A DNA stretch of 55,206 nucleotides from Chlamydiota bacterium (GCA_013288105.1 JABDCM010000004.1:1-55206); one strand, 5' to 3'. Shown: positions 371 to 44,405, counted from the stretch's first letter. The notes: generated by a model not told the origin, from the letters alone. A program made the numbers and translations.

Positions 371-1084
371 ATGAAAAAGTGGTGGATACTTTTACTGATA
401 TGCTTCTCCTTAAACGGTCAAGAAGAAGAAGCGCAACCCAAAGCTCAACTCAGAGATCATTCTGTAGTCCTGATTCATGGATTCGTCTCTTCTGCTCAGA
501 GTATGATGCCGATTAGAAAAGCGTTAACATGCTTAGGATTTGAACAATATGTATGGGAATATCCGAGTCGTGATCAGACGATTCAAGAGCACGCCTGCAA
601 TCTCATTCCTATGCTTCAATATGTGGCCTCTTGTAAGCCTGGTGTCCCCATTAACTTTGTGACTCACTCTGTAGGCGCTCTTGTTTTACGGTGCGCTCTA
701 AATCTTTCTGGATGCCCTGTGGAGGCAAAAGAGGGGCGTATTGTACTGATTGCTCCTCCTAATCAGGGATCGAGTTTAGGACATAGATTCCGGAATTTTT
801 ATCCTGCATATCTCGTGATGGGGGACAAATCAGGAGCTCAGCTTTTAAATTTTGAGGCGCGAGATGTTGCCTGTTTGGGGAATTTTCCTGACAAAGCACA
901 ACTACTTGTTATTGCAGGATACAGAGGAAACACCCTCTTTTGCGCACCTAATGATGGCTGGATTACTGTGGAGGAGACTGCTTTGAATACCCCTTACCAA
1001 TTCCTCTCCTTTCCAGTCTCTCATGGAAGGCTCTTATCGACAGCTGCTGTCTTTTGTGCTATACGCGATTTTTTTCTTAGATAA
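371..1084 (+). CDS. Secreted alpha/beta hydrolase (lipase/esterase)
   Basis: Signal peptide; VVLIHG oxyanion motif, THSVG nucleophile elbow, APPNQGS, NDG and SH triad motifs. Confidence 0.85.
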   Translation: MKKWWILLLICFSLNGQEEEAQPKAQLRDHSVVLIHGFVSSAQSMMPIRKALTCLGFEQYVWEYPSRDQTIQEHACNLIPMLQYVASCKPGVPINFVTHSVGALVLRCALNLSGCPVEAKEGRIVLIAPPNQGSSLGHRFRNFYPAYLVMGDKSGAQLLNFEARDVACLGNFPDKAQLLVIAGYRGNTLFCAPNDGWITVEETALNTPYQFLSFPVSHGRLLSTAAVFCAIRDFFLR

Positions 1085-1100
1085 CCCAAAACTCAGGTTA
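1082..1100. repeat. Collapsed remnant of palindromic element family A
   Basis: TAACCCAAAACTCAGGTTA matches the family A terminus and begins at the stop codon of 371..1084. Confidence 0.7.
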
Positions 1101-1102
1101 AT

Positions 1103-1136
1103 AAAAAAAACTGATGCAAGAAACCTCTTGCATCAG
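1103..1136 (-). terminator. Rho-independent terminator of 1154..1786
   Basis: Perfect 11-bp stem CTGATGCAAGA/TCTTGCATCAG with 4-nt loop; A8 tract on + reads as a U tract on -. Confidence 0.8.
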
Positions 1137-1153
1137 CTCTTGATTTTACAGAT

Positions 1154-1786
1154 CTAGTTTTTCCAAACAGGATTTCTGTTATCATCGCGCAACATTAAAA
1201 TTGCACCATTTTTGTTGACCTCTTTTCCGATAAACATTTTCTCACCATTTGCTGTCATCGGGAATACAGTCACAACAACTTTATCACCTGTCATCAGCTT
1301 GATTCTCTGTTGCTCAATGTATTTTGCAGGTCCAAGCATGATTTTCACATCTTTTCCATCATCCGTTGTGACAACCAGTTGTAGATGCACTCCATTGGGA
1401 TATTGCATTCTATTTACTGTTTTTATAACCCCTTTAATTTTATCTACAGAGTGACCACGAAGAGCTTTTAGCTCTTGGCCATTCTCATCATAGAAAGTTC
1501 CTTTTCCATTAACTCTTTGTCCTGGAGCAGGAACGGGTTGATTAAAATCTCTCCAATCTGTTCCATTATTCATGTTCATCGATTGGCTATCATCTTGAAC
1601 TCTCTGATTATTGTAATATCTCCAATCTGTAGGCCCTCTGGTATGAGCAGAAGCCCCATTATTGGAAGAATTGGGAGCTGAACAGCGTCCATCTTTACAA
1701 TCAGCTGACAACTTACCTAAAGAAAGAGAGAGCACGCAAGATGCGATAATTGTGCTCATAATATATAATTTTTTCTTGCTCAACAT
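1154..1786 (-). CDS. Exported protein with C-terminal OB-fold-like domain (MamS/MamX-like family)
   Basis: Signal peptide, low-complexity linker, then GVHL...LGPAKYI...GDKVVV...LRDDNRNPVW. Confidence 0.65.
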   Translation of the reverse strand: MLSKKKLYIMSTIIASCVLSLSLGKLSADCKDGRCSAPNSSNNGASAHTRGPTDWRYYNNQRVQDDSQSMNMNNGTDWRDFNQPVPAPGQRVNGKGTFYDENGQELKALRGHSVDKIKGVIKTVNRMQYPNGVHLQLVVTTDDGKDVKIMLGPAKYIEQQRIKLMTGDKVVVTVFPMTANGEKMFIGKEVNKNGAILMLRDDNRNPVWKN

Positions 1787-7434: not shown

Positions 7435-8052
7435 TTGGATTGTCTACCTTCAAATGATACGCTCTCATTCTGGCTATTGCATTATGGGGGTTTTGCCCTT
7501 TTTGGCCTACTTGCCTTAGGGATCATAGCGCTTCCGATTCCCGAAGAGACGCTTATGATTTTGACAGGGATTTTGTTACGTAATGGGAAGCTCTATTTTC
7601 CCACAACTATTTTAGCAACCTATTTTGGTTGTCTTACAGGCATTACCCTTAGTTATTTATTAGGAAGAACGGCTGGCAAATTTTTGTTAAGAAAATATGG
7701 CAGTTGGATAGGTATTACAGAGAAGAGGCTTGAGCAGACTCACCTTTGGTTTCAAAGATTTGGGAAATGGACGCTGGCGTTTGGCTATTTTATACCTGGG
7801 GTACGCCATTTCACAGGATTTTCTGCAGGAATGACCTATCTTGAGTTTAAAAAGTTTGCCCTATTTGCTTATACGGGGGCTTTTGTCTGGATGTCGCTCT
7901 TTCTTTCGATTGGCTATTTTGCTGGGGAGTACTGCCGTTCACTTTATGAAACCGTTGAGATTAATTTAGAAACGGTTGCTCTGATCATTATTCTGATTGC
8001 TGTATGTGGTATGCTGATTGTGCTTAAACGCACGCTTAAGGGCAAAAAGTAA
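7435..8052 (+). CDS. DedA family membrane protein
   Basis: LPIPEET, YLLGR and FIPGVRH motifs. Confidence 0.92.
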   Translation: MDCLPSNDTLSFWLLHYGGFALFGLLALGIIALPIPEETLMILTGILLRNGKLYFPTTILATYFGCLTGITLSYLLGRTAGKFLLRKYGSWIGITEKRLEQTHLWFQRFGKWTLAFGYFIPGVRHFTGFSAGMTYLEFKKFALFAYTGAFVWMSLFLSIGYFAGEYCRSLYETVEINLETVALIIILIAVCGMLIVLKRTLKGKK

Positions 8053-8061
8053 CTACGAACC

Positions 8062-8092
8062 TTTTGGGTTTTTCTCCCTCAAATTCAGGTTA
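8062..8092. repeat. Short form of palindromic element family A
   Basis: Reverse complement is TAACCTGAATTTGAGGGAGAAAAACCCAAAA; its TAA is the stop codon of the gene ending at 8090. Confidence 0.8.
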
Positions 8093-8779
8093 CAAAGGCT
8101 CTATTTGAAGAGTCACCTGAGCGATATAAAATTTAGTTCTGCTCTCATATCCTGAATCTGTTCCCAGAAAAATCCATATCTCCCCTTGAGAGTTGCTTTT
8201 AACCACAAAGAGATTTTTAGGGGCGTATAATTTAGGTAGATAGAGGCGATGGTGAGGATCAACCTCCTCATGTGCCAGAGTTCCGACGACAAGGCTATTC
8301 TTCCCCCCCTCTGACTGATCCCCCTTATCTACACTCAACTGGTAGAAACCATGAACGGCTATTTTTTCAGGTTTTTCAGTGGAGGCACCTATTTTCAAAT
8401 AGACACTCTCCCCTTCCGATCCCCCGACGCCAAAGGTGTCTGTAGGAATATTACTTTCAATAAGAACGGAGAGGTTGAGTAGATATTCTGTATCAGGTTT
8501 TAGGTTCTCCATCTTGCGACGGACGAACATAAAGAGATCATCGCTGTGGTTGTTTCCTGAGAGAAAAAGCCCCTTTTCCAGAGATTCTGGTTCCGTAAGT
8601 TTTGTAGGTAGATTCTCCCATCCCCAGGCAAGCTCATAAAAAGACTCTCCGCCTACAGGATAGTCAGAGAAGTCCCCCTCCCATCCTGCCGTATCCGAAG
8701 AAAAGGTGAAATCTATCGCAAGACAGAACTTACAAGGCAGAAGGAGGAAGAGTAGATAGAGGCTAATCCTCTTCTTCAT
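8090..8779 (-). CDS. Conserved exported hypothetical protein
   Basis: Signal peptide MKKRISLYLLF... from the ATG at 8779; GWEGDFSDYP and SGNNHSDDLFMF motifs. Confidence 0.7.
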   Translation of the reverse strand: MKKRISLYLLFLLLPCKFCLAIDFTFSSDTAGWEGDFSDYPVGGESFYELAWGWENLPTKLTEPESLEKGLFLSGNNHSDDLFMFVRRKMENLKPDTEYLLNLSVLIESNIPTDTFGVGGSEGESVYLKIGASTEKPEKIAVHGFYQLSVDKGDQSEGGKNSLVVGTLAHEEVDPHHRLYLPKLYAPKNLFVVKSNSQGEIWIFLGTDSGYESRTKFYIAQVTLQIEPL

Positions 8780-9083
8780 CAAACTCCTCATCCTCATCAA
8801 AATCCTCATCATCTTCCATTTCGTATGAGAAAAAATCCTCCCAAAGAAAATTAAGGAAGTTGAGATAGGCTCCCAGATCAATTCTTTCGCGTTCATTTAA
8901 TTTAGTAAAGTCGGGTGCTTTTGCAATTTTTTCTTCTAAGATCTGAACGACTTTCAAAATTAAGGTACTTGATTCACGAGCGGTTGGATCTTCTTTAATT
9001 TCTGCGTCAATATCTGTTCTAGCTCCGGCTAGAAATTCTTTAACTTCTTGTAGAGTTGGGAGTTGAATTAAAGCTTCGCTCAT
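8763..9083 (-). CDS. Hypothetical protein with acidic C-terminal tail
   Basis: 106-aa ORF downstream of the tRNAs with an AGGA RBS and a D/E-rich tail. Confidence 0.7.
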   Translation of the reverse strand: MSEALIQLPTLQEVKEFLAGARTDIDAEIKEDPTARESSTLILKVVQILEEKIAKAPDFTKLNERERIDLGAYLNFLNFLWEDFFSYEMEDDEDFDEDEEFDEEED

Positions 9084-9117
9084 GATTCTTCCTAAGAGTT
9101 GTTATTTTAAAATGAAT

Positions 9118-9200
9118 TGGGGGTGGTTAGATTCGAACTAACGTAGGCCGGAGCCGTCGGATTTACAGTCCAATGCAATTGGCCGCTATGCGACACCCCC
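9118..9200 (-). tRNA. tRNA-Tyr(GTA)
   Basis: GGGGGTG/CACCCCC acceptor stem, anticodon loop CTGTAAA, long variable arm, TTCGAAT T-loop. Confidence 0.95.
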
Positions 9201-9210
9201 AAATAAAATA

Positions 9211-9282
9211 TGCTGGAGAAAGGAGTTGAACCCTCAACCGTCCGATTACAAATCGGATGCTCTGCCATTGAGCTACTCCAGC
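9211..9282 (-). tRNA. tRNA-Thr(TGT)
   Basis: GCTGGAG/CTCCAGC acceptor stem, anticodon loop TTTGTAA, GGTTCAACTCC. Confidence 0.95.
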
Positions 9283-9317
9283 GACGGCTACACGTTATAG
9301 CAAACTCTCGCCTTTAT

Positions 9318-9740
9318 CTACAAGCCCTTCTCTTTATCATTTTTTTCGACTTGAAAATCTTTCTCGGTAGGCCTAAAAATAGTCTCCAAAGGCAAACTCC
9401 CCCCCTCTCTCTCTTGGGGTTTCTCATCCTCCACAGCTCCCCCTTCTACCGCCTCCTTTCGCTCCGCTTCCTGCTGCGATAAACGAAAATCATGCTCCGT
9501 CTTCCTAAATTTTAACCTCTCTAATGCTCCAGGCTCAGATGCAGACTGACTCATCTCTGCTCCAAAAAAAGGCTGCGTAGATGTATCTAACTTAATTACT
9601 TTTGCTTTAAATTTTCTCTTGCCAGAGGGGGTATATTTAGCTGCATGATTAGCTGTTCCCTCCTGTAACATATGGCACTGTTTATATTTCTTCCCAGAGC
9701 CACAGGGACAGAGCTCATTTCTACCAGGTTTTTTATTCAT
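9318..9740 (-). CDS. SEC-C zinc-binding motif protein
   Basis: N-terminal GRNELCPCGSGKKYKQCH. Confidence 0.9.
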   Translation of the reverse strand: MNKKPGRNELCPCGSGKKYKQCHMLQEGTANHAAKYTPSGKRKFKAKVIKLDTSTQPFFGAEMSQSASEPGALERLKFRKTEHDFRLSQQEAERKEAVEGGAVEDEKPQEREGGSLPLETIFRPTEKDFQVEKNDKEKGL

Positions 9741-9787
9741 ACTTAACCTTTTTTAAAACAGTAAGTAGATTCTAAGTCATCTTATCG

Positions 9788-9816
9788 TTGCTCTCAAGAG
9801 AAAAGTAGATTATACT
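9788..9816 (+). promoter_or_regulatory. Sigma66/sigma70-type promoter of ttcA
   Basis: TTGCTC-N17-TATACT. Confidence 0.55.
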
Positions 9817-9825
9817 GTTTATCCT

Positions 9826-10587
9826 ATGCTCCCTTTATCTAAACCCCCCCTACCTTTAGCCCTTCCCCCATGGAAAAAATTGGGTAAAAAGTTAGAAAGC
9901 TCCGTCAGAAAAGCTCTCTATGACTACCAAATGGTAGAGGGGGTCTCAAAAATCGCGATCGCTCTCAGCGGGGGAAAAGATAGTCTTGCTCTTCTTTTTC
10001 TCCTTCATGCCATCTCAGGTAAGGGGTTTCCAAAATTTGACCTCACTGCTATTCATGTAGGAGGGGAATTTTCCTGCGGGGCAGGCGTTCAAGAAAATTA
10101 TCTAAGAGCTATCTGTGAAAAATTGGAGGTCCCTTTTCTCTCTCGTCTCTCCACTCAAAAGAGGGAAAAATTGGAATGTTATAGCTGCTCTCGAGAGAGA
10201 AGACGCCTGATTTTCGATGCTGCTCAAAGTGTGGGTGCCCATACCATAGCCTTTGGCCATCATAGAGATGACAATGCTCAAACTCTCCTCCTTAACCTCC
10301 TCCATAAAGGGGAATTTGCAGGCACCTTACCCAAAATTGAAATGGTCCGTTTTGGACTTACCATCATCCGCCCTCTTACCTACGTGCCTGAGGAGGAGCT
10401 GCGGCAATTTGCTAAAGAGTATGGCTTTGCCAGAATCAGCTGCCAGTGCCCCGTAGGTCAACATTCTATGAGAAAAAAGGTTGACTCTCTTTTGACAGAA
10501 ATGGAAACTTACTTTCCACATGCACGCTCTAATATAGCAGCTGCTACTTTGATTTATGGATCTAATAAAGCTGCAAAAATTGACTAA
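9826..10587 (+). CDS. ttcA: tRNA 2-thiocytidine biosynthesis protein (PP-loop)
   Basis: SGGKDS, CYSCSRERR, GHHRDD, IIRPL and CQCP motifs. Confidence 0.9.
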   Translation: MLPLSKPPLPLALPPWKKLGKKLESSVRKALYDYQMVEGVSKIAIALSGGKDSLALLFLLHAISGKGFPKFDLTAIHVGGEFSCGAGVQENYLRAICEKLEVPFLSRLSTQKREKLECYSCSRERRRLIFDAAQSVGAHTIAFGHHRDDNAQTLLLNLLHKGEFAGTLPKIEMVRFGLTIIRPLTYVPEEELRQFAKEYGFARISCQCPVGQHSMRKKVDSLLTEMETYFPHARSNIAAATLIYGSNKAAKID

Positions 10588-10598
10588 AGGTTTATATC

Positions 10599-11438
10599 AT
10601 GCTTCCTCATCAAGAAAATCGTATCACCATTGACGGCATCGAAATTGCTCTCACCTCTCCCGATCTTTTTCCCTTTCATTGGGTAGGTCAAAGAGATGTT
10701 CTCGACCAACTCTTAGCTTGTTGGCTAGTGATCCACCCTGGGGATATTCCCTTAAATCCCCGCCTTGTCGGAAGACCAGGAGTTGGAAAGACGACTCTCG
10801 CCTATGCTGCTGCTAAAAAATTGGAAAAACAGGTCTATATTTTCCAATGCACCATGGATACGCGTCCAGAGGATCTTCTCATTACACCCGTTATCAATGA
10901 TAAAGGGGGCATTCGCTATGTGGCCTCCCCACTCGTTGCAGCTATGATTCAGGGGGGTGTCTGTATTCTTGATGAGGGAAATCGGATGAGTGAGAAATCC
11001 TGGGCCTCTCTCGCCCCCCTCTTAGATGCGCGTCGCTATATAGAATCTATTGTCACCGGATTAAAAATCTATGCACATGAGGATTTTCGTATCTGCGTTA
11101 CCATGAATGAGGATGCCTCTACTTTTGAGGTCCCTGAATATATTCACAGCCGTCTTCAGCCTCAAATTTATCTTGATTTTCCCGAAGCAGATGAGGAAAA
11201 GCGCATTTTGAAAGAAAATCTTCCTTTCGTAGAGGAGCAGATTCTTGATTATGTAGTAGCCTTTCTTCAAAAAGCCCATTTTCATCAAGAAAATTATTCT
11301 GTCCGTGATGGAATCAATATTGCTCGCTATGCCGCAAAACGGATGCATGCTCTTCCCGAAAAAGTCAATCGAGAGGCCATCATGCGTCAAGCCATCTTAA
11401 TGGTTCTAGGACAAGAGGCAACCATCCACTACTCATAA
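10599..11438 (+). CDS. MoxR-family AAA+ ATPase
   Basis: Walker A GRPGVGKT, Walker B CILDEGNR, sensor region TMN...SRLQP. Confidence 0.9.
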   Translation: MLPHQENRITIDGIEIALTSPDLFPFHWVGQRDVLDQLLACWLVIHPGDIPLNPRLVGRPGVGKTTLAYAAAKKLEKQVYIFQCTMDTRPEDLLITPVINDKGGIRYVASPLVAAMIQGGVCILDEGNRMSEKSWASLAPLLDARRYIESIVTGLKIYAHEDFRICVTMNEDASTFEVPEYIHSRLQPQIYLDFPEADEEKRILKENLPFVEEQILDYVVAFLQKAHFHQENYSVRDGINIARYAAKRMHALPEKVNREAIMRQAILMVLGQEATIHYS

Positions 11439-11439
11439 A

Positions 11440-13302
11440 ATGCATCCATTTCATCTTCGTAAAGGCAATGTGATTGCCCTCCCCACCCTCCATTATACCA
11501 TGGAGTGTGCCATGCATGTAAAAAAGGCCTTTGATTATTTTCAACCCGATTGCATCGCAGTGGAACTCTCCGAGGACTTAAATGACTCTTTTCTCCATGC
11601 TGCAAGCCGTCTTCCAGATATCACCCTCATCAAAACCTCCTCTCTCTACTATCTAGCGGAACCTTGTGATGCTTCATTCGAAGCTCTTCGCTTAGCTCTT
11701 GAGTCTGGTCTGCCCTCTTATTGCATTGATCTACATGTAGACAATTATCCTTTATTTAATGAGGCTCTTCCCGATCCCTACGCTATTTCCATTCTCGGTC
11801 TTGAAAAATATTACACAGCATACATCCAGTCTCAACCAGTCAAACACCCCTTAGATAGATCCAGAGAACTGCATATGGCGCGCCGTTTGAAAGAGCTCTC
11901 CTGTCTATATGAAAGGGTCTTATTTATAGCAGGATTTCATCATAGCGAGGCTGTTTTAGCCGCCTTAGATCAGAACTCTTTTCCCCTCGACGAAGTAAAT
12001 GGCCAAAGGCCCTTTACGAGTCAGAAAATCCCAAGAGATGCAAGTAAACTTCCTGAATTTGAGAAAGAAAAACCCAAAACTCAGGTTACTATTGCTACTT
12101 TAACGGAAGATTCTTGTCGAAAGGTGATGGCTGAATATGGATGGATCAGTCAAGCCTATGAAGAATGGAGAGGCTCTTCTGACATTGAGCTCGATAGACA
12201 ACAACTTATTCTCTCTCTCTATAAAAAAAGCAGTGATAACTACACAAAGAACACAGGAAACCCTTTTTTAGGATATCACTTAAGAAATACGATGAAATTT
12301 GCTCGCAACTACTCGCTCCAACAAAACCGCCTGCTTCCAGGGCTTTTTGAGCTCTTGAGCTGTGCCAAGGGATGCGTTGATCATAACTACGCCTATGAGG
12401 TGTGGGAACTTGCCACCTCTTATCCTTTTCGAAAAAATATCGACAATTTACAAGAGCTCGATCTTTCTGTGGAAGATATTTGGGGCCATTCTAAACCCAT
12501 TTACTTTCACCTAAAACAGAGACAAACTAAAGGGCTCCATTTTCAACGACGTCAAAAAGATAGAGGAGGGAAAAAGCCTTTTTCTCCCCCCTCACCCTTT
12601 TTTCTCTGCTCCTATCCCCCTGAAGATCTTCAAGTAGAAAATTTTGGAGATTTTTTAAAGAAAAAAGGGACTAGGCTTCTATCTGAGGAGCAGGCCCATT
12701 CCATCCCCTTTTCAACCAGCCTAGAAGAGGGATTAGATGTGAAAGAGACAGTCCGACATTGGCATGAGAAAAAGCTCTATGTTAGAAAAAGAGAAAAACC
12801 TCCTCAAGCTGCAAGCTCTGTTGTGATCATCTTTGATGAGGACAGCCCTGAAGAAAAAGATCTTTATAATGAAAAATTTCCCTGGAAAACGAGCTGGCAA
12901 GGAGAACACAGTCAAGAATCTGATATGGCCTTTTATGCCACCTCTCTTCAACAGAATATTATAGGGCCCGGTATCAGCCGCTGTGAATATGGTGGTTTTA
13001 TGCTTACCTCCCCTCCTCGGCGCCTTCAAGATGTCTGGACAGATCCAGACTATGAAAGATGCAAAAATAAGGGGGAGGTCCTCCTGCGAGCCGCTATTGA
13101 TTATGCTTTAAAACCCCTGATTATCTTAGTCGCAAAAAAACCCCCTACCAGCAAAATCAGAGGAATAGCTCAAAGATATGGAAAAAAAATTGTCTATTTG
13201 CCTTTGGGTAGCCTTTCCCCTATCATGCTTAATAAAATCCGCTCTTTCCATGCCCTAGATGGACATGACAAGAGAGAAATAGCTGGTGATTACATTTTTT
13301 AA
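11440..13302 (+). CDS. Conserved MoxR-partner protein with TraB/DUF5682-like N-terminus; contains an in-frame repeat insertion
   Basis: Starts 1 nt after the MoxR stop; IAVEL, RELHMARRL, FIAGFHH, CSYPPED, GLDVKETVRHW and GEHSQESDMAFYAT motifs. Confidence 0.75.
   Translation: MHPFHLRKGNVIALPTLHYTMECAMHVKKAFDYFQPDCIAVELSEDLNDSFLHAASRLPDITLIKTSSLYYLAEPCDASFEALRLALESGLPSYCIDLHVDNYPLFNEALPDPYAISILGLEKYYTAYIQSQPVKHPLDRSRELHMARRLKELSCLYERVLFIAGFHHSEAVLAALDQNSFPLDEVNGQRPFTSQKIPRDASKLPEFEKEKPKTQVTIATLTEDSCRKVMAEYGWISQAYEEWRGSSDIELDRQQLILSLYKKSSDNYTKNTGNPFLGYHLRNTMKFARNYSLQQNRLLPGLFELLSCAKGCVDHNYAYEVWELATSYPFRKNIDNLQELDLSVEDIWGHSKPIYFHLKQRQTKGLHFQRRQKDRGGKKPFSPPSPFFLCSYPPEDLQVENFGDFLKKKGTRLLSEEQAHSIPFSTSLEEGLDVKETVRHWHEKKLYVRKREKPPQAASSVVIIFDEDSPEEKDLYNEKFPWKTSWQGEHSQESDMAFYATSLQQNIIGPGISRCEYGGFMLTSPPRRLQDVWTDPDYERCKNKGEVLLRAAIDYALKPLIILVAKKPPTSKIRGIAQRYGKKIVYLPLGSLSPIMLNKIRSFHALDGHDKREIAGDYIF
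11989..12088 (+). repeat. Family A palindromic element arm inserted in frame in a CDS
   Basis: 11998..12088 matches intergenic 22513..22603 at 84/91 nt; encodes DEVNGQRPFTSQKIPRDASKLPEFEKEKPKTQV. Confidence 0.9.
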
Positions 13303-13305
13303 AAT

Positions 13306-14088
13306 ATGAAAAGAACAAAAATTCTTTTAACTAATGATGACGGAATTCACGCGCCAGGACTCCGCGTCCTTTGGGAGGCTCTTAAAAGGGCAGATTTTGC
13401 TGATCTTTGCATAGTTGCTCCCACCTCGGAACGGTCAGGTGCAGGTGTATCTATTACATGGGATCGCCCTCTTCTTATCCAAGAGATTAACCATTTTGAG
13501 GGGACTCCTGCTTGGTGCGTAGATGGCTCTCCTGCAGATTGTGTTAAATTAGGCATGCGTATCATCCTTGAACATCCCCCCGATTTCATCGCCTCAGGAA
13601 TCAATGCGGGCTCCAACGCCGGAAGAAATGTCCTCCACTCAGGAACTGTAGGCGCTGTGATCGAAGGAGTTTTCAGAGGCATTCCAGGAGTCGCTTTTTC
13701 TTGTGAAAATGGACGTGATCCCAATTTTCATGTCGCAGAAAAATATGTAGCTACCATTGTTAAATACTTGTTAGAAAATCCTTTAGCTCATGGCACTCTC
13801 CTGAATGTCAACTTTCCAAAAGTTGCAAAAGAAAAAGTTAAAGGATTTCGTTTGACCAAGCAGGGAAGGGGAAGATGGTCTGAAGATCCTCTTTTACATT
13901 TAGAATCGGAAAAAGGAAGAAGTTATTGGCTGGGGGGCAAGCCAGACGAGCTACCAGAAGATCAGGATTGTGATATTGCTTTATTAAAGGAGGGATATAT
14001 GACAGCAGTTCCCCTTTACGTGCATAATCTCACAGATCAAGAAGAGTGGGAAAAAAGGGGGAGTAGTTTTCAAGAACTGCTTGAGTAA
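13306..14088 (+). CDS. surE: 5'/3'-nucleotidase SurE
   Basis: ILLTNDDG, GSPADCV and SGINAGSN...SGTVGA motifs. Confidence 0.97.
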   Translation: MKRTKILLTNDDGIHAPGLRVLWEALKRADFADLCIVAPTSERSGAGVSITWDRPLLIQEINHFEGTPAWCVDGSPADCVKLGMRIILEHPPDFIASGINAGSNAGRNVLHSGTVGAVIEGVFRGIPGVAFSCENGRDPNFHVAEKYVATIVKYLLENPLAHGTLLNVNFPKVAKEKVKGFRLTKQGRGRWSEDPLLHLESEKGRSYWLGGKPDELPEDQDCDIALLKEGYMTAVPLYVHNLTDQEEWEKRGSSFQELLE

Positions 14089-14093
14089 AATTA

Positions 14094-14262
14094 ACGCCAG
14101 TTTAATTCAAGGAATGGCTAGAAGATGCTGAAAAGACATTTGAGCAGATTACGAGATCCAATTCGAAGCAAATCCCCTCAATGGGGCTTTGCGAGAATTG
14201 GATCGCGTGAGATGCTCAATGAATTACAGCAGATTCAGCCGTTCCTTAAATTAAGCTGGCGT
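14094..14262. repeat. ~170-bp long imperfect palindrome (family C, MITE-like or structured RNA)
   Basis: Termini ACGCCAGTTTAATTCAAGGAATGGCT / AGCCGTTCCTTAAATTAAGCTGGCGT plus nested stems up to the CCCC-TCAAT-GGGG apex. Confidence 0.8.
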
Positions 14263-14303
14263 AAAATTGAGCTTTCCAGTACCTTCTACCTCTTTTCGAT
14301 TGT

Positions 14304-14375
14304 GGGCGTATAGCTTAGCGGTAGAGCACCTGTCTTACACACAGGGGGTCATAGGTTCAAATCCTGTTGCGCCCA
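14304..14375 (+). tRNA. tRNA-Val(TAC)
   Basis: GGGCGTA/TGCGCCC acceptor stem; anticodon arm CCTGT-CTTACAC-ACAGG. Confidence 0.95.
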
Positions 14376-14379
14376 TCTT

Positions 14380-14453
14380 GCGGGAGTAGTTCAATTGGTT
14401 AGAGCACTGCCCTGTCACGGCAGAAGTTGCGGGTTCGAGCCCCGTCTCCCGCG
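14380..14453 (+). tRNA. tRNA-Asp(GTC)
   Basis: GCGGGAG/CTCCCGC acceptor stem; anticodon arm CTGCC-CTGTCAC-GGCAG. Confidence 0.95.
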
Positions 14454-14473
14454 TTCCCCTTTTTGGAGGCACT

Positions 14474-15385
14474 ATGCCTAGTAAAAATTTCCGCTTTGGC
14501 GTCTATTATTTAAAAACTCTTTTTTGGTTTATTCTTGGAGGGTTTTTAGCAGCTTTGGGTGTTCAGGTCTTCCTTGTGCCCAACCATCTGATTGACGGTG
14601 GTGTGGTAGGCCTTGCAATGATGGCATCTCACCTCTTTGGTGTCCAACATCTCCCCTATTTTTTAATCTTTTTTAACCTCCCCTTTGTCTATTTAGCCTA
14701 TAAACAAATTGGCAAACATTTTGTAATTGAAATGGTCACTGCAGTGATCGTTTTTGCACTCTTTTTGGGTCTTTTTTATTGGCTTCCCATCTGGTGGAAG
14801 TTTCGACCGTTTGAATTTCATGGTGAAGTACTTGAAGTGGTCGCTCTGGGCGGTTTTATTTTAGGATGTGGCATTGGGTTGATTATTCGACATGGGGGTT
14901 CTACCGATGGAACTGAGATTATGGGGATTATTATTAATCGAAAGAGGGGATTTACTGTCGGTCAGGTCATTCTTTTTGTAAACTTTTTTATCTTTGGGCT
15001 TTCTGGATTTGTTTACAAGAATTGGCACACAGCGATTTTATCTCTTTTGACCTATGTCGTAGCGACCAAGGTGATGGATACTGTTATCGTGGGGTTTGAG
15101 GACACCAAATCTGTCATGATTATTTCTACGAAGCCTCAAGAGATTACAAATATTCTCATGTCTGAGCTGGGTTTAGGTTTAACGGTTATGTATGGCAGGG
15201 GCGGCTATAGTGGGGATGAGCGAGAAATTCTCTATATTGTGGTAGAACGTTTGCAGCTTGCTGAATTAAAGGAGCTGGTTCATAGGGAAGATCCTGAAGC
15301 TTTCATAGCCATAGAAAACCTCCATGAGGTTATCAATGGTCGTCAAGCGGCGGTTAAATCAATTTCCTCCCCATCTTTGAAATAG
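14474..15385 (+). CDS. YitT family membrane protein
   Basis: PNHLIDGGVVG, GGSTDGTEI and C-terminal GRGGYSG...DPEAFI motifs. Confidence 0.92.
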   Translation: MPSKNFRFGVYYLKTLFWFILGGFLAALGVQVFLVPNHLIDGGVVGLAMMASHLFGVQHLPYFLIFFNLPFVYLAYKQIGKHFVIEMVTAVIVFALFLGLFYWLPIWWKFRPFEFHGEVLEVVALGGFILGCGIGLIIRHGGSTDGTEIMGIIINRKRGFTVGQVILFVNFFIFGLSGFVYKNWHTAILSLLTYVVATKVMDTVIVGFEDTKSVMIISTKPQEITNILMSELGLGLTVMYGRGGYSGDEREILYIVVERLQLAELKELVHREDPEAFIAIENLHEVINGRQAAVKSISSPSLK

Positions 15386-15949
15386 GTTATGAGGAAGACG
15401 AAAGGCATCAAGAACCTTTCCTACGATGAAATTTTCCACCTCTTCTAAGGATTTAGGGTGGAGATACCAGGCAGGAATGGGGGGTAATATGGTCGCTCCG
15501 ACCTTAGCGAGCTTCCATAGATTTTCCAGATGAATTTCACTAAAAGGGGATTCTCTGGGTACGACCACAAGAGGCCTCTTCTCCTTTAAGGTCACATCAG
15601 CTGCGCGTCTAAGAGCATTGTCTCCAAGTCCCATTGAAATCGCTGCAACTGTTGCCATACTACAGGGAATAATGACCATCCCGTCTACCAGATAGGTACC
15701 ACTTGCAATCATGCACCCTAAATCCTGAATCAAATTGAGATGGATTTTATTTTTAACCTCTTCAGGAAAGGAGTCCACCCATTTTGTAGCGGTGCTGTAC
15801 TCTTTTCCCAATTCCAAAGTTGCTGTGTAAAGTGCGCCGGACGTGATGACCAGCTCAATATGGTGACCTAAATGGGCAAGAGCTTGCACCATACGTACAG
15901 CCAGAATCATTCCAGAGGCGCCTGAAACACCCACTATATAACGGTTCAT
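15359..15949 (-). CDS. ubiX: Flavin prenyltransferase UbiX
   Basis: GVSGASG, PCSMATVAAI, RAADVTLKEKR and VPRESP motifs. Confidence 0.95.
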   Translation of the reverse strand: MNRYIVGVSGASGMILAVRMVQALAHLGHHIELVITSGALYTATLELGKEYSTATKWVDSFPEEVKNKIHLNLIQDLGCMIASGTYLVDGMVIIPCSMATVAAISMGLGDNALRRAADVTLKEKRPLVVVPRESPFSEIHLENLWKLAKVGATILPPIPAWYLHPKSLEEVENFIVGKVLDAFRLPHNLFQRWGGN

Positions 15950-16816
15950 TTAGGAACCTGTAAAAAAAGGAAGAATACCAACTAAAACAGCCATTAAAGT
16001 GGCAAAAGAGAAAATCACATTATTCCAAAAGAAGAGCGGTTCTAGAGGAGTTTTAGAAATTTTTCTATGTGAGAGAAAAAAGAGAGCTCCTAGGAAAGGA
16101 ATAATAAGGAAGTAGGGTAGAGAGAGGGGGGTGATCCAACCCAATAGAAAGAGCATCACTAGAGAAGAAAAATGGGAAAAACGGGAGATCCAGAGACTTT
16201 TTTTAACTCCGAAGCGCGCAGGAATGCTATGAAGACGATGCATCCGATCAAATTCGATATCTTGAATGGCATACACAATATCTTCTGCGGCGATGACAAA
16301 AAAGGCGGCTCCCCCTAAAAAAATGGGGGTCCAACTAAGAGATCCAGTTACAGTGATCCAGGCCATCACGGGTCCGCACAGATGGATGAGACCAAGGATG
16401 AAATGGCTAGAGGCGTGAATCCTTTTCATGTAGGAGTAACCCCCAATCAAAACAGCTGCACCTAAAGAGCAATAAAAGCAGAGCGGATTGATTTGAAAAC
16501 AGATGAGGAGAAAGGAGAAGAGGCTCAAAAAGGCGATAGAGAGCACTTGAGAGGCGTCTATTTTTTGAGAGGGAAGAGCTCTATTTTGCGTGCGAGGATT
16601 TTTTGCATCGATCTTCCGATCGATCAGCTGATTGAAGGCCATTCCAGAAATTCTTGCGGCAAAAAAAGCTGGAAATATCCAGAGAATGGGGAGCCATGCC
16701 TCAACAGTTAAAGGGGGATATTTTCTTAAGGCAAGGAGGGCTCCGGCAAGGACTATGGGAAGTCCAAAGAGAGAATGCTCTAGACGAGTAATGTCTTTGA
16801 AAATGGTGAATCTCAT
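15950..16816 (-). CDS. ubiA: UbiA-family prenyltransferase (MqnP-like, futalosine menaquinone route)
   Basis: HSLFGLP, AFNQLIDRKIDAKNPRT and DIVYAIQDIEFDR motifs; ATG at 16816 avoids overlap with the divergent gene. Confidence 0.9.
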   Translation of the reverse strand: MRFTIFKDITRLEHSLFGLPIVLAGALLALRKYPPLTVEAWLPILWIFPAFFAARISGMAFNQLIDRKIDAKNPRTQNRALPSQKIDASQVLSIAFLSLFSFLLICFQINPLCFYCSLGAAVLIGGYSYMKRIHASSHFILGLIHLCGPVMAWITVTGSLSWTPIFLGGAAFFVIAAEDIVYAIQDIEFDRMHRLHSIPARFGVKKSLWISRFSHFSSLVMLFLLGWITPLSLPYFLIIPFLGALFFLSHRKISKTPLEPLFFWNNVIFSFATLMAVLVGILPFFTGS

Positions 16817-16880
16817 ATTTACCTTTTGCATTTTATAGAAGAGTGAATTATCAATCCAGCATACGGAAAAAGAGGGAATC

Positions 16881-17558
16881 ATGATAGAAAATCTTTCTCT
16901 AGACGCGTGGCGTATTTTTAGAATTTTGTCAGAATTTGTTGATGGTTTTGAAACGATGACCAATTTTGGTCCCTCTGTTTCTATTTTTGGTTCTGCAAGG
17001 ATCTTGCCGGGAACCCCTTATTATGAATTAGCGACAGAGGTTGCGAAAAAAATAGCGGAGAAGGGGTTTGGGATTATTACGGGGGGAGGTCCTGGGATTA
17101 TGGAGGGGGCGAATAAGGGGGCGCAATTGGCCAAGGGGCGTTCATGTGGGATTAATGTGGATCTTCCTTTTGAAGAAAATTCCAACCCCTATCTCGATCG
17201 AAAATACACGCTTAACTTCCGTTATTTTTTTGTAAGAAAGGTGATGTTTATCCGTTATGCGCAGGCCTATGTATTTCTGCCTGGGGGTTATGGTACTTTT
17301 GATGAGCTATTTGAGGCACTTACACTGATTCAGACGAAGCGGATCAAACCTTTTCCTATTTTTCTGGTTGGGACCTCTTATTGGGAGACGCTTATGGACT
17401 GGTTAAAGAGGGGGCCGCTTCAGGAGGGGTATTTGAGTGAGGGGGATTTTGCACCTATTACGATTACGGATGATCCTAATTTAGTTGCACAGATGGTTGA
17501 GAAGCACTATCAGGAATCGGGTCCTGATCCCACCTTTCAGCTCGGCAAAAATGGTTAA
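16881..17558 (+). CDS. LOG family (TIGR00730) nucleotide phosphoribohydrolase
   Basis: FGSAR, TGGGPGIME, FFVRKVMF and PGGYGTFDELFE motifs. Confidence 0.93.
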   Translation: MIENLSLDAWRIFRILSEFVDGFETMTNFGPSVSIFGSARILPGTPYYELATEVAKKIAEKGFGIITGGGPGIMEGANKGAQLAKGRSCGINVDLPFEENSNPYLDRKYTLNFRYFFVRKVMFIRYAQAYVFLPGGYGTFDELFEALTLIQTKRIKPFPIFLVGTSYWETLMDWLKRGPLQEGYLSEGDFAPITITDDPNLVAQMVEKHYQESGPDPTFQLGKNG

Positions 17559-17596
17559 TATTCAATTTATAGGTAGTCTGAATATCAACCATCTTT

Positions 17597-18964
17597 CTAT
17601 TTCTTCTCGAGAGTAAATTGACAGCCAGAATCCATTAAATCATCAATATACTTGATGTCATACTTCGAATGGAGAAAATCAGCATTATCCATCATATATT
17701 GGTGAAAAGGAATGGTGGAATGCACCCCCCCAATATGAAACTCACGTAACGCTCGCTTCATCACAGCAATCGCCTCCCTCCTATCCCTACCCTTGACTAT
17801 CAACTTGGCTATCATAGAATCATAATAAGGGGGAATCCTATACCCCGTATAGCAAGCACTATCTACACGAACATGAGGCCCCCCCGGAGGAAGATAATAT
17901 TCCAATACCCCAGGAGAAGGAGCAAAATTCTGCGCTGCATTCTCTGCATTGATGCGACACTGAATCACATGCCCCTCAAAATTAATCTCTTTCTGTTTCC
18001 ATTTCAGCTCTTCTCCTCGCGCAATTCGAAGTTGCTCGCGTACAAGATCAATCCCCGTAAGCTCCTCCGTAACCGTGTGCTCCACTTGAATACGTGTATT
18101 CATCTCCATAAAGTAGAAGTTGAGATCTTTATCTAACAGAAACTCAATCGTTCCTACAGAAAAATACTTGGCAGCCTTCGCAATGTGTACGGCCGCTTGA
18201 CCAATCTTATCGCGCATCTTTTTAGAAAGGACGGGACTGGGCGCCTCCTCAATCAATTTTTGCCGTCTTCTTTGAATCGTGCAATCCCTCTCCCCTAAAT
18301 GAACATAATTTCCATGCTTATCCCCCATAATCTGCATCTCAATATGACGCGGACGGACAATCATCCTCTCCAAATAGACATCAGGATTATTAAAACTCGC
18401 CTCTGCTTCTGCTCTGGCTGCCGGAAATAAACGGTGAAGCTCCTCCAAATTATGCGCAATCCGTATCCCCTTTCCCCCTCCTCCTGCAACCGCTTTGATG
18501 AAAATCGGAAAGCCAAGCTCTTTTGCCCATTTTACAGCCTCCCCAATCTCTTTCACAATGCCATCAGATCCCGGAATCACCGGACATTTCACACTCTTCG
18601 CAATCGCCTTGGCCATTGATTTCTCCCCCATTAAAGCAATGGACTTAGGAGAGGGACCAATAAAATTTAAACCACAACTTTCACAAATGGATGCAAAATT
18701 GGCATTTTCACTTAAAAAACCATAACCAGGATGAATCGCATCCGCTCCTGTAATTTCACATGCTGAAAGGATGTTAGCAACTTTCAGATAAGAACGGCTC
18801 GCTTGAGGTTCCCCAATACAGACAGCCTCATCCGCGAGATGAACATGCAAAGCCTCAGCATCAGCTTGAGAATAAACAGCAACAGTGCCAAGCCCTAAGT
18901 CATGACAAGCTCGAATGATACGAACTGCAATTTCACCCCGATTGGCTATTAATACCTTTTTCAT
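17597..18964 (-). CDS. accC: Acetyl-CoA carboxylase biotin carboxylase
   Basis: ANRGEIA, HPGYGFLSEN and EMNTRIQVEH motifs. Confidence 0.98.
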   Translation of the reverse strand: MKKVLIANRGEIAVRIIRACHDLGLGTVAVYSQADAEALHVHLADEAVCIGEPQASRSYLKVANILSACEITGADAIHPGYGFLSENANFASICESCGLNFIGPSPKSIALMGEKSMAKAIAKSVKCPVIPGSDGIVKEIGEAVKWAKELGFPIFIKAVAGGGGKGIRIAHNLEELHRLFPAARAEAEASFNNPDVYLERMIVRPRHIEMQIMGDKHGNYVHLGERDCTIQRRRQKLIEEAPSPVLSKKMRDKIGQAAVHIAKAAKYFSVGTIEFLLDKDLNFYFMEMNTRIQVEHTVTEELTGIDLVREQLRIARGEELKWKQKEINFEGHVIQCRINAENAAQNFAPSPGVLEYYLPPGGPHVRVDSACYTGYRIPPYYDSMIAKLIVKGRDRREAIAVMKRALREFHIGGVHSTIPFHQYMMDNADFLHSKYDIKYIDDLMDSGCQFTLEKK

Positions 18965-19446
18965 TACGCTTCTACACTGAAAATTTTTGTTCCAAACTCC
19001 ACAGGATCCCCATTTTTCACAAGAATTTCAACCACTCTTCCCTTAACTCCTGCTTTTACCTCATTCATCACTTTCATTGCCTCAATGATACAAACCACAC
19101 TTTCCTCAGTCACAACATCCCCAACCTTTACAAAATTAGCAGCATCCGGAGAGGGGGAAGTATAAAAAGTTCCAACCATAGGAGAGGTGATCGCTGTACC
19201 CACCACTTTTGACTTACTCTCAGAAGAGGGGGAAGGAGCCACTGGAAAAGAGTGGACAGGTTCCACAAGGGGGGGAGATTCTAACCTTCTCTCCTCGTAT
19301 ACTCTCTCTTGAGGAGAAGAAAGGGTAACTCTTCCCCCACAGTCTCTCTCTAACTCGATTTCAAAACCCTCTTGTTTAAGAGCTAACCGCTTAATTTGCG
19401 CAAGCTTCATTGCTTGCATCAGCCTTTCAATCTGCTTTAAATCCAT
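18964..19446 (-). CDS. accB: Biotin carboxyl carrier protein
   Basis: SPMVGTFY and EAMKVMNE biotin attachment site. Confidence 0.97.
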   Translation of the reverse strand: MDLKQIERLMQAMKLAQIKRLALKQEGFEIELERDCGGRVTLSSPQERVYEERRLESPPLVEPVHSFPVAPSPSSESKSKVVGTAITSPMVGTFYTSPSPDAANFVKVGDVVTEESVVCIIEAMKVMNEVKAGVKGRVVEILVKNGDPVEFGTKIFSVEA

Positions 19447-19455
19447 GAACAACTC

Positions 19456-20013
19456 CTATACACGTTGAATATATTCGCGCGTGCGTGTATCAACTTTAAT
19501 CACATCGCCAGGCTCAATAAAGGGGGGAACTATAATCACCGCTCCCGTCTCTAAAATAGCCTCTTTGGTCGTATTTGTAAGGGAACTACCCTCTTCAGCC
19601 GGTTCTGATTTTGCAACCATCAATTCTAAAAACTGAGGAAGCTCCACAGAAAAAATCGTATCCCCATAAAAAGAGGCTTGGATCTCTACCCCCTCTTTCA
19701 AGAAATTAATCTTGTCTCCAATGACATCCGGAGAGACAAATACCTGCTCTAAATTATTAATATCTAAAAAAAGATAGCTCCTCCCCTCAAGATAAAGATA
19801 TTCTAACCTTCTTTCTTGCAAAGAAACATCCTTAACCTCTTGTCCCACTTTAAAGTTTTTCTCAACCGCTTTATCAGTAGTCAAGTTACGTAATTTAGTC
19901 TTAATAAAAGGCTGCCCCTTAGGAACTGTCACCTTGACGACCGATTCCACTCTAAATAGCTTTTCCTCAACAGAGACCACCATTCCAGGAGCTAATTGAT
20001 TACTCGTTACCAT
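19456..20013 (-). CDS. efp: Elongation factor P family protein
   Basis: VPKGQPFIKTKLRNL loop and LETGA...VPPFI...VDTR motifs. Confidence 0.93.
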   Translation of the reverse strand: MVTSNQLAPGMVVSVEEKLFRVESVVKVTVPKGQPFIKTKLRNLTTDKAVEKNFKVGQEVKDVSLQERRLEYLYLEGRSYLFLDINNLEQVFVSPDVIGDKINFLKEGVEIQASFYGDTIFSVELPQFLELMVAKSEPAEEGSSLTNTTKEAILETGAVIIVPPFIEPGDVIKVDTRTREYIQRV

Positions 20014-41619: not shown

Positions 41620-41626
41620 ACGTACT

Positions 41627-41691
41627 ATTGTACAAAGACCTCTGATTAAAAACAAGAAAGCGTTGACGACTTAAACTAAAAATTTTACCAT
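41627..41691. promoter_or_regulatory. Back-to-back sigma66-type promoters
   Basis: + strand TTGACG-N17-TACCAT (41663..41691); - strand TTGTTT-N17-TACAAT (41655..41627). Confidence 0.6.
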
Positions 41692-41698
41692 CTATATT

Positions 41699-44152
41699 AT
41701 GTCTGAATTAGATCTCTTTAAAGAAAAAATTCTCCAAGGAGATGCCACCTCTCTTCAAACTCAAATCATCGATCATATCCATTTTACTCTTGGAAAAGAT
41801 CGTTATACAGCCACTAAAAGAGATCTTTTTTTTGCGGTTGCCTATACGATTCGCGATCATCTTGTAGATGGATGGATCAAGACCCAACAGCAATATTATG
41901 AAAAAGATGTGAAACGGGTCTACTATCTTTCCATGGAGTTTCTCATGGGACGCACTCTTCAAAATAGTTTAGTCAATTTAAATCTTTGGGAAAATTGTAA
42001 AAAAGCTGTCCGTGATCTGGGGTATGATATCGATTTTTTAGTAGAGATTGAGGCAGATGCGGGATTAGGAAATGGGGGGTTGGGAAGGCTTGCTGCCTGC
42101 TTTTTAGATTCGATGGCTACGTTGGGAATTCCAGGTTATGGCTATGGCATTCGGTATGATTATGGGATCTTTACACAGAAAATTATCCATGGAAACCAGT
42201 TTGAAACTCCAGATAACTGGCTTCGCTATGGCAACCCCTGGGAAATCTGTCGTGCAGAATATCTCTATCCTGTTCAATTTTATGGACGGGTAGTTAAATA
42301 TACCGATTCTTCCGGAAAGCTGCGTTGTGAGTGGGTGGATACACAAGAGGTCATGGCTATGGCCTATGATAATCCTATTCCCGGTTACAACAATAATACT
42401 GTCAATACGCTTCGACTCTGGCAAGCGCGCTCACCTAGAGGCTTTGATTTAAGCTATTTTAATCATGGTGACTATATCCGAGCGGTTGAGGAGGTCACCC
42501 TAAAAGAAAATATCTCGAAGATTCTTTATCCAAATGATAATGTTTTCGAGGGTAAAGAATTGAGATTGAAGCAGGAATACTTTCTAGTCTCTGCGACTAT
42601 TCAGGATATCATCCGAAGATACACGAAGGGTCATATTCATCTAGATGCTCTTCCAGATAAGGTTGCGATCCAGTTAAATGATACACATCCTGCCCTTGCG
42701 ATTGCTGAGATGATGCGTCTTCTGATGGATCGAGAGGAGCTCAGTTGGGAAAAGGCGTGGCAGTTAACGCGAGATACCTTCGCCTATACCAACCATACTC
42801 TTCTTCCTGAAGCGCTCGAAAGATGGTCGGTCCCTCTCCTTGAGAATCTACTGCCTCGCCATCTAGAAATCATCTATGAGATTAATGCGCGCTGGCTACA
42901 AGAGGTCAATAGACACTATCCTGGGGATTTAGAAAAACAGCGAGCCCTCTCTATTGTTGAGGAGAGTGAGCCCAAAAAAATCAACATGGCCCATTTAGCT
43001 ATTGTAGGCTCGCACAAAGTCAATGGGGTCTCTGCTCTCCATTCAGACCTTTTGAAACAGCACCTCTTTAAACCCTTCTGGGAGATGGAGAATGCAAAAT
43101 TTACAAATAAAACCAATGGAATTACCCCCCGGCGCTGGTTAAAAGTCTGTAACCCACCTCTTGCACGTTTAATTACAGATAAATTGACCGATAAATGGGC
43201 AACAGATCTCTATGATCTCAAACGACTCAACTCTTATGCAGATGATGCCAGTTTTCGCCAAGAGTGGGACCTCATTAAGAGGGAGAATAAGGTCCATCTG
43301 GCCAAAATCATTTTCTCTGAACATGAGATCTCTGTAGATCCTGACTCCCTATTTGATTGCCATGTTAAACGCATTCATGAATATAAACGACAACTGCTCA
43401 ATATCATGCGCGTTATTCACACCTATTTTCAAATCAAAGATAACCCGAATAAAGAATGGATTCCCCGCACGGTAATTTTTAGTGGAAAAGCGGCTCCGGG
43501 TTATTTTATAGCAAAAAAAATCATTAAATTAATTACCTCAGTTGCCAATGTTATTAACCATGATGCTCTGGTTTCTCAGTATTTAAAGATCGTGTTTTTA
43601 GAAAACTATCGAGTCTCTTTAGCGGAGCGCATTATTCCAGCGGCAGATCTTTCGGAACAAATTTCTACAGCTGGTACGGAGGCATCTGGTACAGGCAATA
43701 TGAAATTTACTTTAAATGGAGCTTTGACGATTGGAACTTTAGATGGGGCTAATATTGAAATATTGGAAGAGGTGGGAGCGGACAATATTTTTATTTTCGG
43801 TTTAAAGATTGAAGAGGTGGAAAAGCTGAGGAAGGAGGGGTACCAGCCCTGGGATTATTATTCAAAAGATCCTGCTTTGAAAAGGGTTGTAGATGCGATT
43901 CGAGATGGACTTTTTAGTGCAGGCGATCATGATTTATTTAAGCCGATTGTGTCGAGTTTATTGGAGTGGGGGGATCACTATCTTCTCTTTGCAGACTTTC
44001 ACTCTTATGTAAATAGTCAAGAGCAGGTGAGTGCACTTTATAAAAACCGGGAAACATGGATTCGAAAATCGATTTATAATGTGGCCTCTGTGGGTAAGTT
44101 TTCCAGTGACCGCACCATTCAAGAGTATGCGAAAGAGATCTGGCGATTATAA
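41699..44152 (+). CDS. glgP: Glycogen phosphorylase
   Basis: [24 protein letters not shown] and [13 protein letters not shown] site. Confidence 0.98.
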
Positions 44153-44405
44153 CTTGAGTTTTGGGTTTTTCTCCCTTAAACTCAGGAAGTTTGCTTGCAT
44201 CTCTTGTGCTTTTCCGATTAGTAACTATTCAGGCTATCTTTCACAAGAATCGGGCACGGTAACGTTCACGAAAGAAGGCCCTTGAATCATTTTTTTAAAA
44301 ACCAGCTTAGATGTTCTCTTTCGTGAACGTTACCGCTCCCGTTACCGTGCCCGATTTTCTTCTAATAAACTGAATTTGAGGGAGAAAAACACAAAACTCA
44401 GGTTA
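44150..44405. mobile_element. Composite of palindromic elements filling the glgP / Inc-like intergenic space
   Basis: Family A arm 44150..~44220, GTAACTATTCAG end 44221..44232, family D palindrome 44248..44356, short family A ~44366..44405; both outer TAA/TTA ends are the stop codons of the flanking genes. Confidence 0.85.

Follow-up and report, generated by a model that had tools for sequence, protein, structure and literature searches.

Why should a short repeated element lie, time after time, on the stop codons of genes? The question is raised by a 55,206-nt stretch of chlamydial DNA, hereafter the window, which comprises bases 1-55206 of contig C4 of G000, a Chlamydiales metagenome-assembled genome (MAG) of an uncultured chlamydia-like bacterium (968,882 bases in 45 contigs, 42.8% G+C, 61% complete); the element is referred to as family A. 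An initial annotation had attributed the coincidence to MITEs (transposable elements of miniature size with inverted repeats) mobilized by an IS630/Tc1-mariner transposase. The analyses described here show a 5-bp target duplication and an excess of copies on stop codons, and make it probable that family A consists of non-autonomous palindromic MITEs moved in trans by an IS982-family transposase and that the excess reflects the survival of copies. Genes were called in G000 by a crude home-made procedure based on open reading frames (ORFs) and codon usage, which returned 928 genes and a coding fraction of about 88%. Insertion sites were compared with those of relatives at the protein level, no genome of the same genus being among the relatives compared; the glycogen phosphorylase of G000 showed 74% identity with its counterpart in an uncultured Chlamydiales MAG.

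The high genome-wide copy number anticipated from the window was borne out, as a family-A 14-mer (at most one mismatch) was found 78 times in G000 and 0 times for the reversed control; about 59 loci lie in the 969 kb. The curated set comprised 97 family-A ends at 59 loci, with 38 complete copies. When all inward-pointing ends were aligned, two versions of the end were distinguished, both starting with ACCTGAGTTTTGGG and each folding back as a hairpin of about 36 nt, and terminal inverted repeats of about 16-17 nt (ACCTGAGTTTTGGGTT) were present at both ends of the 38 complete copies. These fall into size classes of 35-37, 55-57, 95, 163 (the commonest), 216-266 and 325 nt, and every one of them is a single long imperfect palindrome, with predicted folding energies of -77.1 kcal/mol at 163 nt (z = -10), -97.4 kcal/mol at 252 nt and -221.9 kcal/mol at 325 nt (z = -23). 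The stability of the hairpins is due to the construction of the element as a palindrome. The 163-nt copies of G000 showed a mean mutual identity of 94% (11 copies, 55 pairs), which suggests a recent spread. Terminal inverted repeats, a target duplication, a length of 36-325 nt, the lack of a transposase gene and the large number of copies all agree with the MITE-like mobile element originally proposed.

Two further repeats are nested in the longer forms. Inside the 216-266-nt copies is a palindromic repeat of a second family, whose arms read CGGGCACGGTAACG...CGTTACCGTGCCCG and which is located at 44225-44366 in the window and elsewhere in G000 at C3 32108-32234, C10 27528-27637, C14 1778-1891 and C45 908-1000, with additional sites at C6 29638-29742, C15 12647-12758 and C39 3881-4027; it occurs within family-A ends and, at C15 and C39, apparently in their absence as well. 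The other repeat is a near-perfect palindrome of 162 nt with 38-nt arms that are 100% complementary (window 22349-22510), and it occupies the same internal position in every 325-nt copy.

To evaluate the target-site duplication, copies were paired automatically and the flanks of the 41 so obtained were compared with 2000 permutations; three of the 41 were later set aside as inner arms. Fifteen of the 41 showed a perfect 5-nt direct repeat, a number that averaged 2.3 and did not exceed 9 among the permutations; the per-position flank identity amounted to 0.61-0.85 in the 5-nt register only, and almost no repeats were observed in the 3-, 4- and 6-8-nt registers. The duplication of TA assumed by the initial annotation was not sustained, a 2-nt repeat occurring in 15 of 41 copies with a permutation mean of 18, and the actual duplication measures 5 bp. 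The ends had been described as TA/ACCTGAG...CTCAGGT/TA, which is accurate for most copies, the TA being merely the last two bases of the 5-bp duplication. The duplicated pentamers were TAATA, TTTTA, TATTA, TACTA, TGTTA, TCTTA, TAAGA, TATAA, AAATA and TACAG, with TAATA as the most frequent and position weights of roughly T, A/T, A/T, T, A. The 325-nt composites carry perfect duplications of their own (TAATA, TTTTA and TAATA). Since single 36-nt hairpins and 325-nt composites alike are bordered by clean 5-bp repeats, whatever lies between two ends moves as a unit.

An individual example is provided by the gene of the NAD-glutamate dehydrogenase (NAD-GDH; 1062 codons), which reads ...CTCTTTACAG up to a 163-nt element and resumes with TACAGAGGTT... 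on its far side. Removal of the 163 nt and of one TACAG restores LFTEVVEK, to be compared with FT(E/Q)(A/V)(V/I)(E/K)(K/P/R) in five orthologues, and this site is the clearest single proof of the 5-bp duplication. Repeats of the same length were also found in G066, a genome of another family, where 20 loci were fetched and 14 complete elements with the same ends showed 8 perfect 5-bp repeats and 6 matching at 4 of 5 positions.

Ninety-five family-A ends could be classified according to the gene end that they face. None of the 44 ends facing the 5' end of a gene is less than 13 nt away from it. For the 51 facing a 3' end, distances were counted between the last base of the stop codon and the boundary of the element, and were 0 in 9 cases, where the stop is made of TA and the A of the element, 1 in three, 2 in one and 3 in twelve, where the stop corresponds to the first three bases of the duplicated pentamer; one more ORF is stopped by the element's own TGA (distance -5), and the other 25 distances range from 9 to 1027. 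A called stop lies in the target or junction at 23 of the 59 loci, two of which have a called stop at both ends, and the excess coincidence with stops noticed in the window thus stood up to a genome-wide test. Under a first null model, based on all intergenic or stop-overlapping pentamers weighted by the target preference of the non-stop loci, 8.4% was expected (binomial P about 1e-10). A second model, in which the exact pentamer was matched for each locus, predicted 6.3 loci, and 23 was reached in 0 of 200,000 simulations (maximum 19). In G066, 4 of the 14 complete elements have in their target or junction a stop that ends an ORF of 100 codons or more. The regeneration of TAA upon insertion, as suggested by the initial annotation, was also confirmed in that the terminal A of the element supplies the last base, and for 4 of the 7 testable junction stops the reconstructed empty site contains a stop, TAA or TAG, in that position. 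The likeliest origin of the enrichment at stops is a preference for AT-rich targets together with selection, in a compact genome, for sites where landing does no harm, and we infer that selection and not active targeting is responsible for it.

A separate arrangement was observed on contig C5 of G000 (46852-48826), where two adjoining paralogous genes of about 600 codons each share an ending, TAATA and then a family-A hairpin, as well as the flank. A tandem duplication of the gene seems to have carried the hairpin with it.

At family-A ends the junction TAA shuts one reading frame and ACCTGA a second, both within 6 nt. The remaining frame (offset 2) is open in 9 of 11 copies of 163-164 nt and in 4 of 5 copies of 325 nt, and 163, 325 and 151 nt all become multiples of three when the 5 duplicated nucleotides are added. 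Comparison with orthologous proteins confirmed two in-frame intragenic copies. One of them, at 11989-12086 of the window, is read in the offset-2 frame inside a conserved protein of 620 aa; it is absent from seven orthologues, with a net gain of 24 residues. The other is the copy in NAD-GDH, which adds 56 residues with respect to the five orthologues. At a third site (C5 2521-2683), an ORF of about 205 codons is apparently lengthened by about 96 codons; three orthologues cease aligning at residues 206-235 and the element starts at residue 205, making this a probable case of C-terminal read-through. Two other sets of candidates were not retained. A 151-nt copy associated with the UDP-glucose pyrophosphorylase gene (C3 24608-24758) was left unconfirmed, as the orthologue match starts just past the element and the 76 upstream codons may be non-coding. 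Of about 22 large copies, 9 lie in phase a short way upstream of a gene start, which was informally judged to be compatible with chance (at most about a third of the start-facing sides).

The assignment to IS630/Tc1-mariner was not supported at the level of the transposase either. PF13358 and PF01359 were not found in G000, and PF13358 was detected in one of five other element-bearing genomes, as an IS630-type DDE_3 gene in the element-rich relative G011. Ends matching family A were instead located on IS982-family insertion sequences in three other chlamydial genomes (G033, G013 and G066). IS982 ends begin with AC, which prompted the choice of PF13612 for the search in relatives. The G033 element (L063) is 1021 bp long, its ends ACCTGAATTTTGGGTTT and ACCTGAGTTTCGGGTTT both match family A, and its transposase scored 229.8 bits with NF033520 (cut-off 130) and E=1.6e-73 with PF13612. 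A truncated IS982 relative in G013 (L053) has the left end ACCTGAGTTTTTGG and 72% identity to L063 over 653 bp, and a third relative, in G066 (L101), lacks its 5' part and abuts a family-A right end. From these ends we infer that IS982 is the mobilizer of family A. The IS5-family transposases on contig C14 of G000 were rejected as a source, being associated with unrelated 107-nt inverted repeats and no family-A ends. The 107-nt inverted repeats are perfect around one such gene (C14 8008-9168, corresponding to L057 1005-2165; NF033579, 247.7 bits), and a second IS5-type gene adjoins it on the other strand.

The distribution of family A was examined by scanning 121 genomes of the order with the 14-mer, again allowing at most one mismatch. 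Counts reached 100 in G011, 34 in both G066 and G091, 29 in G131, 28 in G129, 27 in G052 and 14 in G043; controls gave 0-3 and most genomes 0-2, and abundance is patchy over several families. About 200 end motifs were found in G013, which like G011 belongs to the same family as G000, and in these two genomes the interior of the element is also shared. The elements of about 163 nt in G066 have their ends and length in common with those of G000, and their interiors are 54% identical, close to the value for unrelated sequences; the idea that they belong to the same family was dropped, the ends alone being common. The recurrence of the ends of about 17 nt in many families with different interiors points to one transposase lineage that repeatedly gave rise to MITEs. 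In G003, a variant end, ACCTGAACTTTGGG, recurs near contig ends and starts (e.g., C92 125-138, C124 125-138 and C150 107-120), and is probably a sister MITE or an insertion-sequence lineage that breaks the assembly.

These data can be brought together in a single scheme. An IS982-family DDE transposase would act in trans, recognizing ends of roughly 17 nt, ACCTGA(G/A)TTTTGGGTTT, and would cut AT-rich pentamers (consensus T-A/T-A/T-T-A) with a stagger of 5 bp, followed by their duplication. Any DNA included between two ends could move, which would give rise to the range of sizes from a single 36-nt hairpin to a 325-nt unit with a nested palindrome. As TA stands at both ends of most targets, and the first and last bases of the element are A and T, both junctions would read TAA inward, and the third frame would remain open through the 163- and 325-nt forms, adding with the duplication exactly 56 or 110 codons. 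After insertion, a stop could be kept in the duplicated target, regenerated or created at the junction, an in-frame peptide could be added, or the copy could be lost, and in a genome that is 88% coding the surviving copies would accumulate on stop codons.

Several observations weigh against this scheme. No match to PF13612 was obtained in G000, whose assembly is 61% complete, and none of the three IS982 relatives is intact, L063 having a stop or frameshift near position 440, L053 being truncated and L101 lacking the 5' part. Moreover, L063, alone among the insertion sequences in having both ends matched, is not bordered by a clean duplication (TTTTA versus TAACT), and the further IS982 copies of the family, whose ends differ, are flanked by repeats of 4 bp (L054) or 6 bp (L064 and L066), not 5; according to ISfinder, the duplications of IS982 elements range from 3 to 9 bp. 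The enrichment at stops depends on the crude gene caller, which missed at least one real-looking ORF (8090-8896), and on family-A ends curated by eye, with 20 motif matches dropped as unrelated and 3 as inner arms, and the null model takes all intergenic positions as equally tolerated and cannot split selection from a wider target context. Finally, 3 of the 7 junction stops reconstruct to TAT, including both at the copy next to glgP; either these genes were cut short by the insertion or the flanks changed later. The glgP product ends with EIWRL in G000 and with EIWRLD or EIWKLD in three relatives, where the neighboring genes differ; the 252-nt copy may have clipped glgP.

Four other explanations were weighed against an IS982-driven MITE. 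An IS630/Tc1-mariner element that duplicates TA and restores TAA when inserted into the TA of a stop would account for the TA on both sides of most copies, for their TAA junctions and for the DDE_3 gene in G011, but it appears very improbable. The 2-nt repeat is no better than among permuted flanks, whereas the 5-nt register is strong; some clean duplications do not end in TA (TACAG, TAAGA, TATAA); the two IS630-type profiles are missing from G000, PF13358 also from 4 of the 5 other genomes searched, and the matching ends reside on IS982 elements. Even less credit can be given to mobilization of a REP/REPIN-type element by a RAYT (Y1) transposase. Family A does consist of short, abundant, palindromic and mostly extragenic units, but it has clear 5-bp duplications and terminal inverted repeats, and PF01797 was found in 0 of the 5 element-bearing genomes searched, with control genomes giving matches.

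The remaining two explanations concern the position of the copies at gene ends. A transposase or a host factor present there might steer integration to stops or 3' ends, in agreement with an enrichment that persists when the exact pentamer is controlled (23 versus 6.3), that recurs in G066 (4 of 14) and that leaves the loci away from stops with the same TAATA-like target. Such targeting is rather unlikely, as about 60% of the loci are off stops, including divergent 5' regions and coding sequence, and the intragenic copies occupy unrelated pentamers (TACAG, CCTCA), as expected from insertion anywhere followed by filtered survival. At 8050-8095, moreover, the stop was the only tolerated site because the reconstructed convergent genes have no spacer. 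The very stable folds predicted for all forms and the many copies located directly after stops could alternatively mean that family A represents domesticated 3' hairpins, retained for transcription termination or protection of mRNA 3' ends. This seems improbable, as stability comes automatically with the palindromic build, 44 of the 95 classified ends face a 5' end and some copies lie inside coding sequence. Furthermore, the ends of the two complete copies of the window (22277-22601 and 44152-44403) showed no terminator-like site, in which a T tract would come after a G+C-rich stem, and orientation relative to the adjoining stop is 7 versus 5, without bias.

Six family-A loci are present in the window, where the 16-nt end motif (up to 3 mismatches) returned 8 matches versus 0.58 expected, a number reached in 0 of 100 shuffles; the match at 435-450, with 3 mismatches, is probably due to chance. 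Family-A copies occur at each of the places listed in the initial annotation, the one at about 44366 being the right arm of the 252-nt composite 44152-44403 and not a copy in itself. The terminal TAA had been equated with the stop codon of four genes, and this is true of 8090-8092, 44150-44152 and 44403-44405, which are formed by a flanking TA and the terminal base of the element, and untrue of 1082-1084. At this last site, a terminal fragment of about 16-18 nt lies on the minus strand (1083-1098), followed by TAATA at 1099-1103, and the stop (1082-1084) of ORF 371-1084 overlaps its inner, truncated edge. Just past the fragment, between convergent genes, a hairpin (CTGATGCAAGA...TCTTGCATCAG) and the T-rich run after it (1105-1150) resemble an ordinary intrinsic terminator.

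The second locus is a solo terminal-hairpin unit of 32 nt, unassigned to a strand (8059-8090), in which a 4-nt deletion removed TGAG from the left arm; it is flanked by TACGA (8054-8058) and TACAA (8091-8095). The stop (8090-8092) of the minus-strand ORF 8090-8896 consists of the last base of the hairpin and TA, and the reconstructed empty site has TAG in the same place and zero spacer to a convergent VTT-domain gene (stop 8050-8052). Two features had been overlooked by the earlier reading, namely the location of the copy at 11989-12086 (plus strand, partial, with about 65 nt of one end gone) within the 620-aa ORF 11440-13302, and that of the hairpin at 21974 in a divergent 5' region. The latter is a solo 35-nt unit (21974-22008, no strand assigned) between the M29 peptidase gene (20777-21934, minus strand) and a TM2-domain gene; no stop is involved, and the flanks CCTGT and TATAT do not represent a clean target duplication.

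The complete 325-nt copy (22277-22601, plus strand; 22272-22606 with its duplications) is bordered by perfect TAATA repeats at 22272-22276 and 22602-22606. It had been described as directly following the stop at 22272-22274; a copy is indeed there, and the stop of the TM2-domain gene (22029-22274) sits within the duplicated target, being the first TAA of TAATA. This copy is composed of a 163-nt element and the nested 162-nt palindrome (22349-22510), and one frame is open throughout. The last locus is the 252-nt composite 44152-44403 (44147-44408 with its flanks TTATA and TAATA; no strand assigned), whose interior at about 44225-44366 belongs to the second palindromic repeat family. The stop of glgP is the junction TAA (44150-44152) at its left edge, and that of a convergent 311-aa ORF is the junction TTA (44403-44405) at its right edge.

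Contigs of X1, the only public run found to contain the stretch and probably the source sample, were aligned to 7500-23500, and no allele lacking a copy was found in this interval. They break at family-A copies, and one joint (22348 to 22511) omits the nested 162 nt and is equivalent to the 163-nt form. A search of the window with Rfam at the gathering threshold returned four tRNAs only. Among the other repeats, paralogues of the 311-aa protein, which has no Pfam match, were found both in tandem and dispersed, with 70-88% DNA identity, at 44403-45338 and 45491-46426 of the window and in G000 on C37 (four matches) and C2 (65947-66455). A pair of 300-nt direct repeats (53387-53686 and 54599-54898), 91% identical and 1212 nt apart, lies in a very long ORF that runs from 52694 to past the end of the window.

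Family A resembles several known systems, each in part. The available text on MITECca01, from the Cardinium endosymbiont of Oedothorax gibbosus, describes an abundant IS982-derived MITE of about 240 bp, whose parental insertion sequences are largely pseudogenised, with intact copies reported (PMC9769881). Like family A, this element is non-coding and abundant, lives in an intracellular host and has terminal inverted repeats matching an IS982-family element. It differs in its Bacteroidota host, as opposed to Chlamydiota, in its length of about 240 bp, as opposed to modular forms of 36-325 nt, and in having intact parents, as opposed to none seen here; the available part of that source mentions neither a stop-codon association nor in-frame insertions, both of which occur in family A. 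In the accessible text on Rickettsia palindromic elements (RPEs), sequences of about 150 bp are inserted in frame within unrelated conserved genes of an obligate intracellular host (PMC10969869). They share with family A the palindromic structure and the presence in conserved genes with the reading frame kept. Family A, in contrast, is mostly intergenic or on stops, with two intragenic copies confirmed, and has terminal repeats, a 5-bp duplication and a visible candidate parental insertion sequence; the likeness drawn here is one of behavior. As far as the consulted text goes, bcr1 of the Bacillus cereus group is a hairpin-forming repeat of about 155 bp with 5-bp direct repeats at its flanks, unlike family A in host and sequence, and no parental insertion sequence is named for it there (PMC3184786). 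The Correia elements of Neisseria and the RUP elements of pneumococcus are likewise abundant MITEs with terminal inverted repeats and TA junctions. Correia and RUP elements duplicate TA, as distinct from the 5 bp of family A. The target of bcr1 is TTTAT. No description of MITEs in Chlamydiae was found in the literature searched, where the family-A end strings appeared in no relevant paper, and the part of the Waddlia genome paper that was available mentions 'numerous repeated sequences' only.

The copies of family A break MAG assemblies, with contigs ending within them, and lead to annotation errors, such as ORFs that seemingly run through a copy and gene ends made of element bases. They also constitute a natural data set on the insertion sites tolerated by a compact intracellular genome, and the addition of protein segments by selfish DNA can be tested, outside Rickettsia, on the in-frame copies in the glutamate dehydrogenase and in the conserved protein of 620 aa. 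With two frames shut, the third open and length plus duplication a multiple of three, the element may either sit on or replace a stop, or be read as a loop of 56 or 110 residues in essential enzymes. It is conceivable, though we advance it only tentatively, that environmental chlamydiae share a MITE superfamily with IS982-type ends, shaped to be harmless wherever it lands and forming a chlamydial counterpart of the RPEs. If this were true, family A would keep giving rise to new peptide segments and to horizontal exchange among co-infecting chlamydiae.

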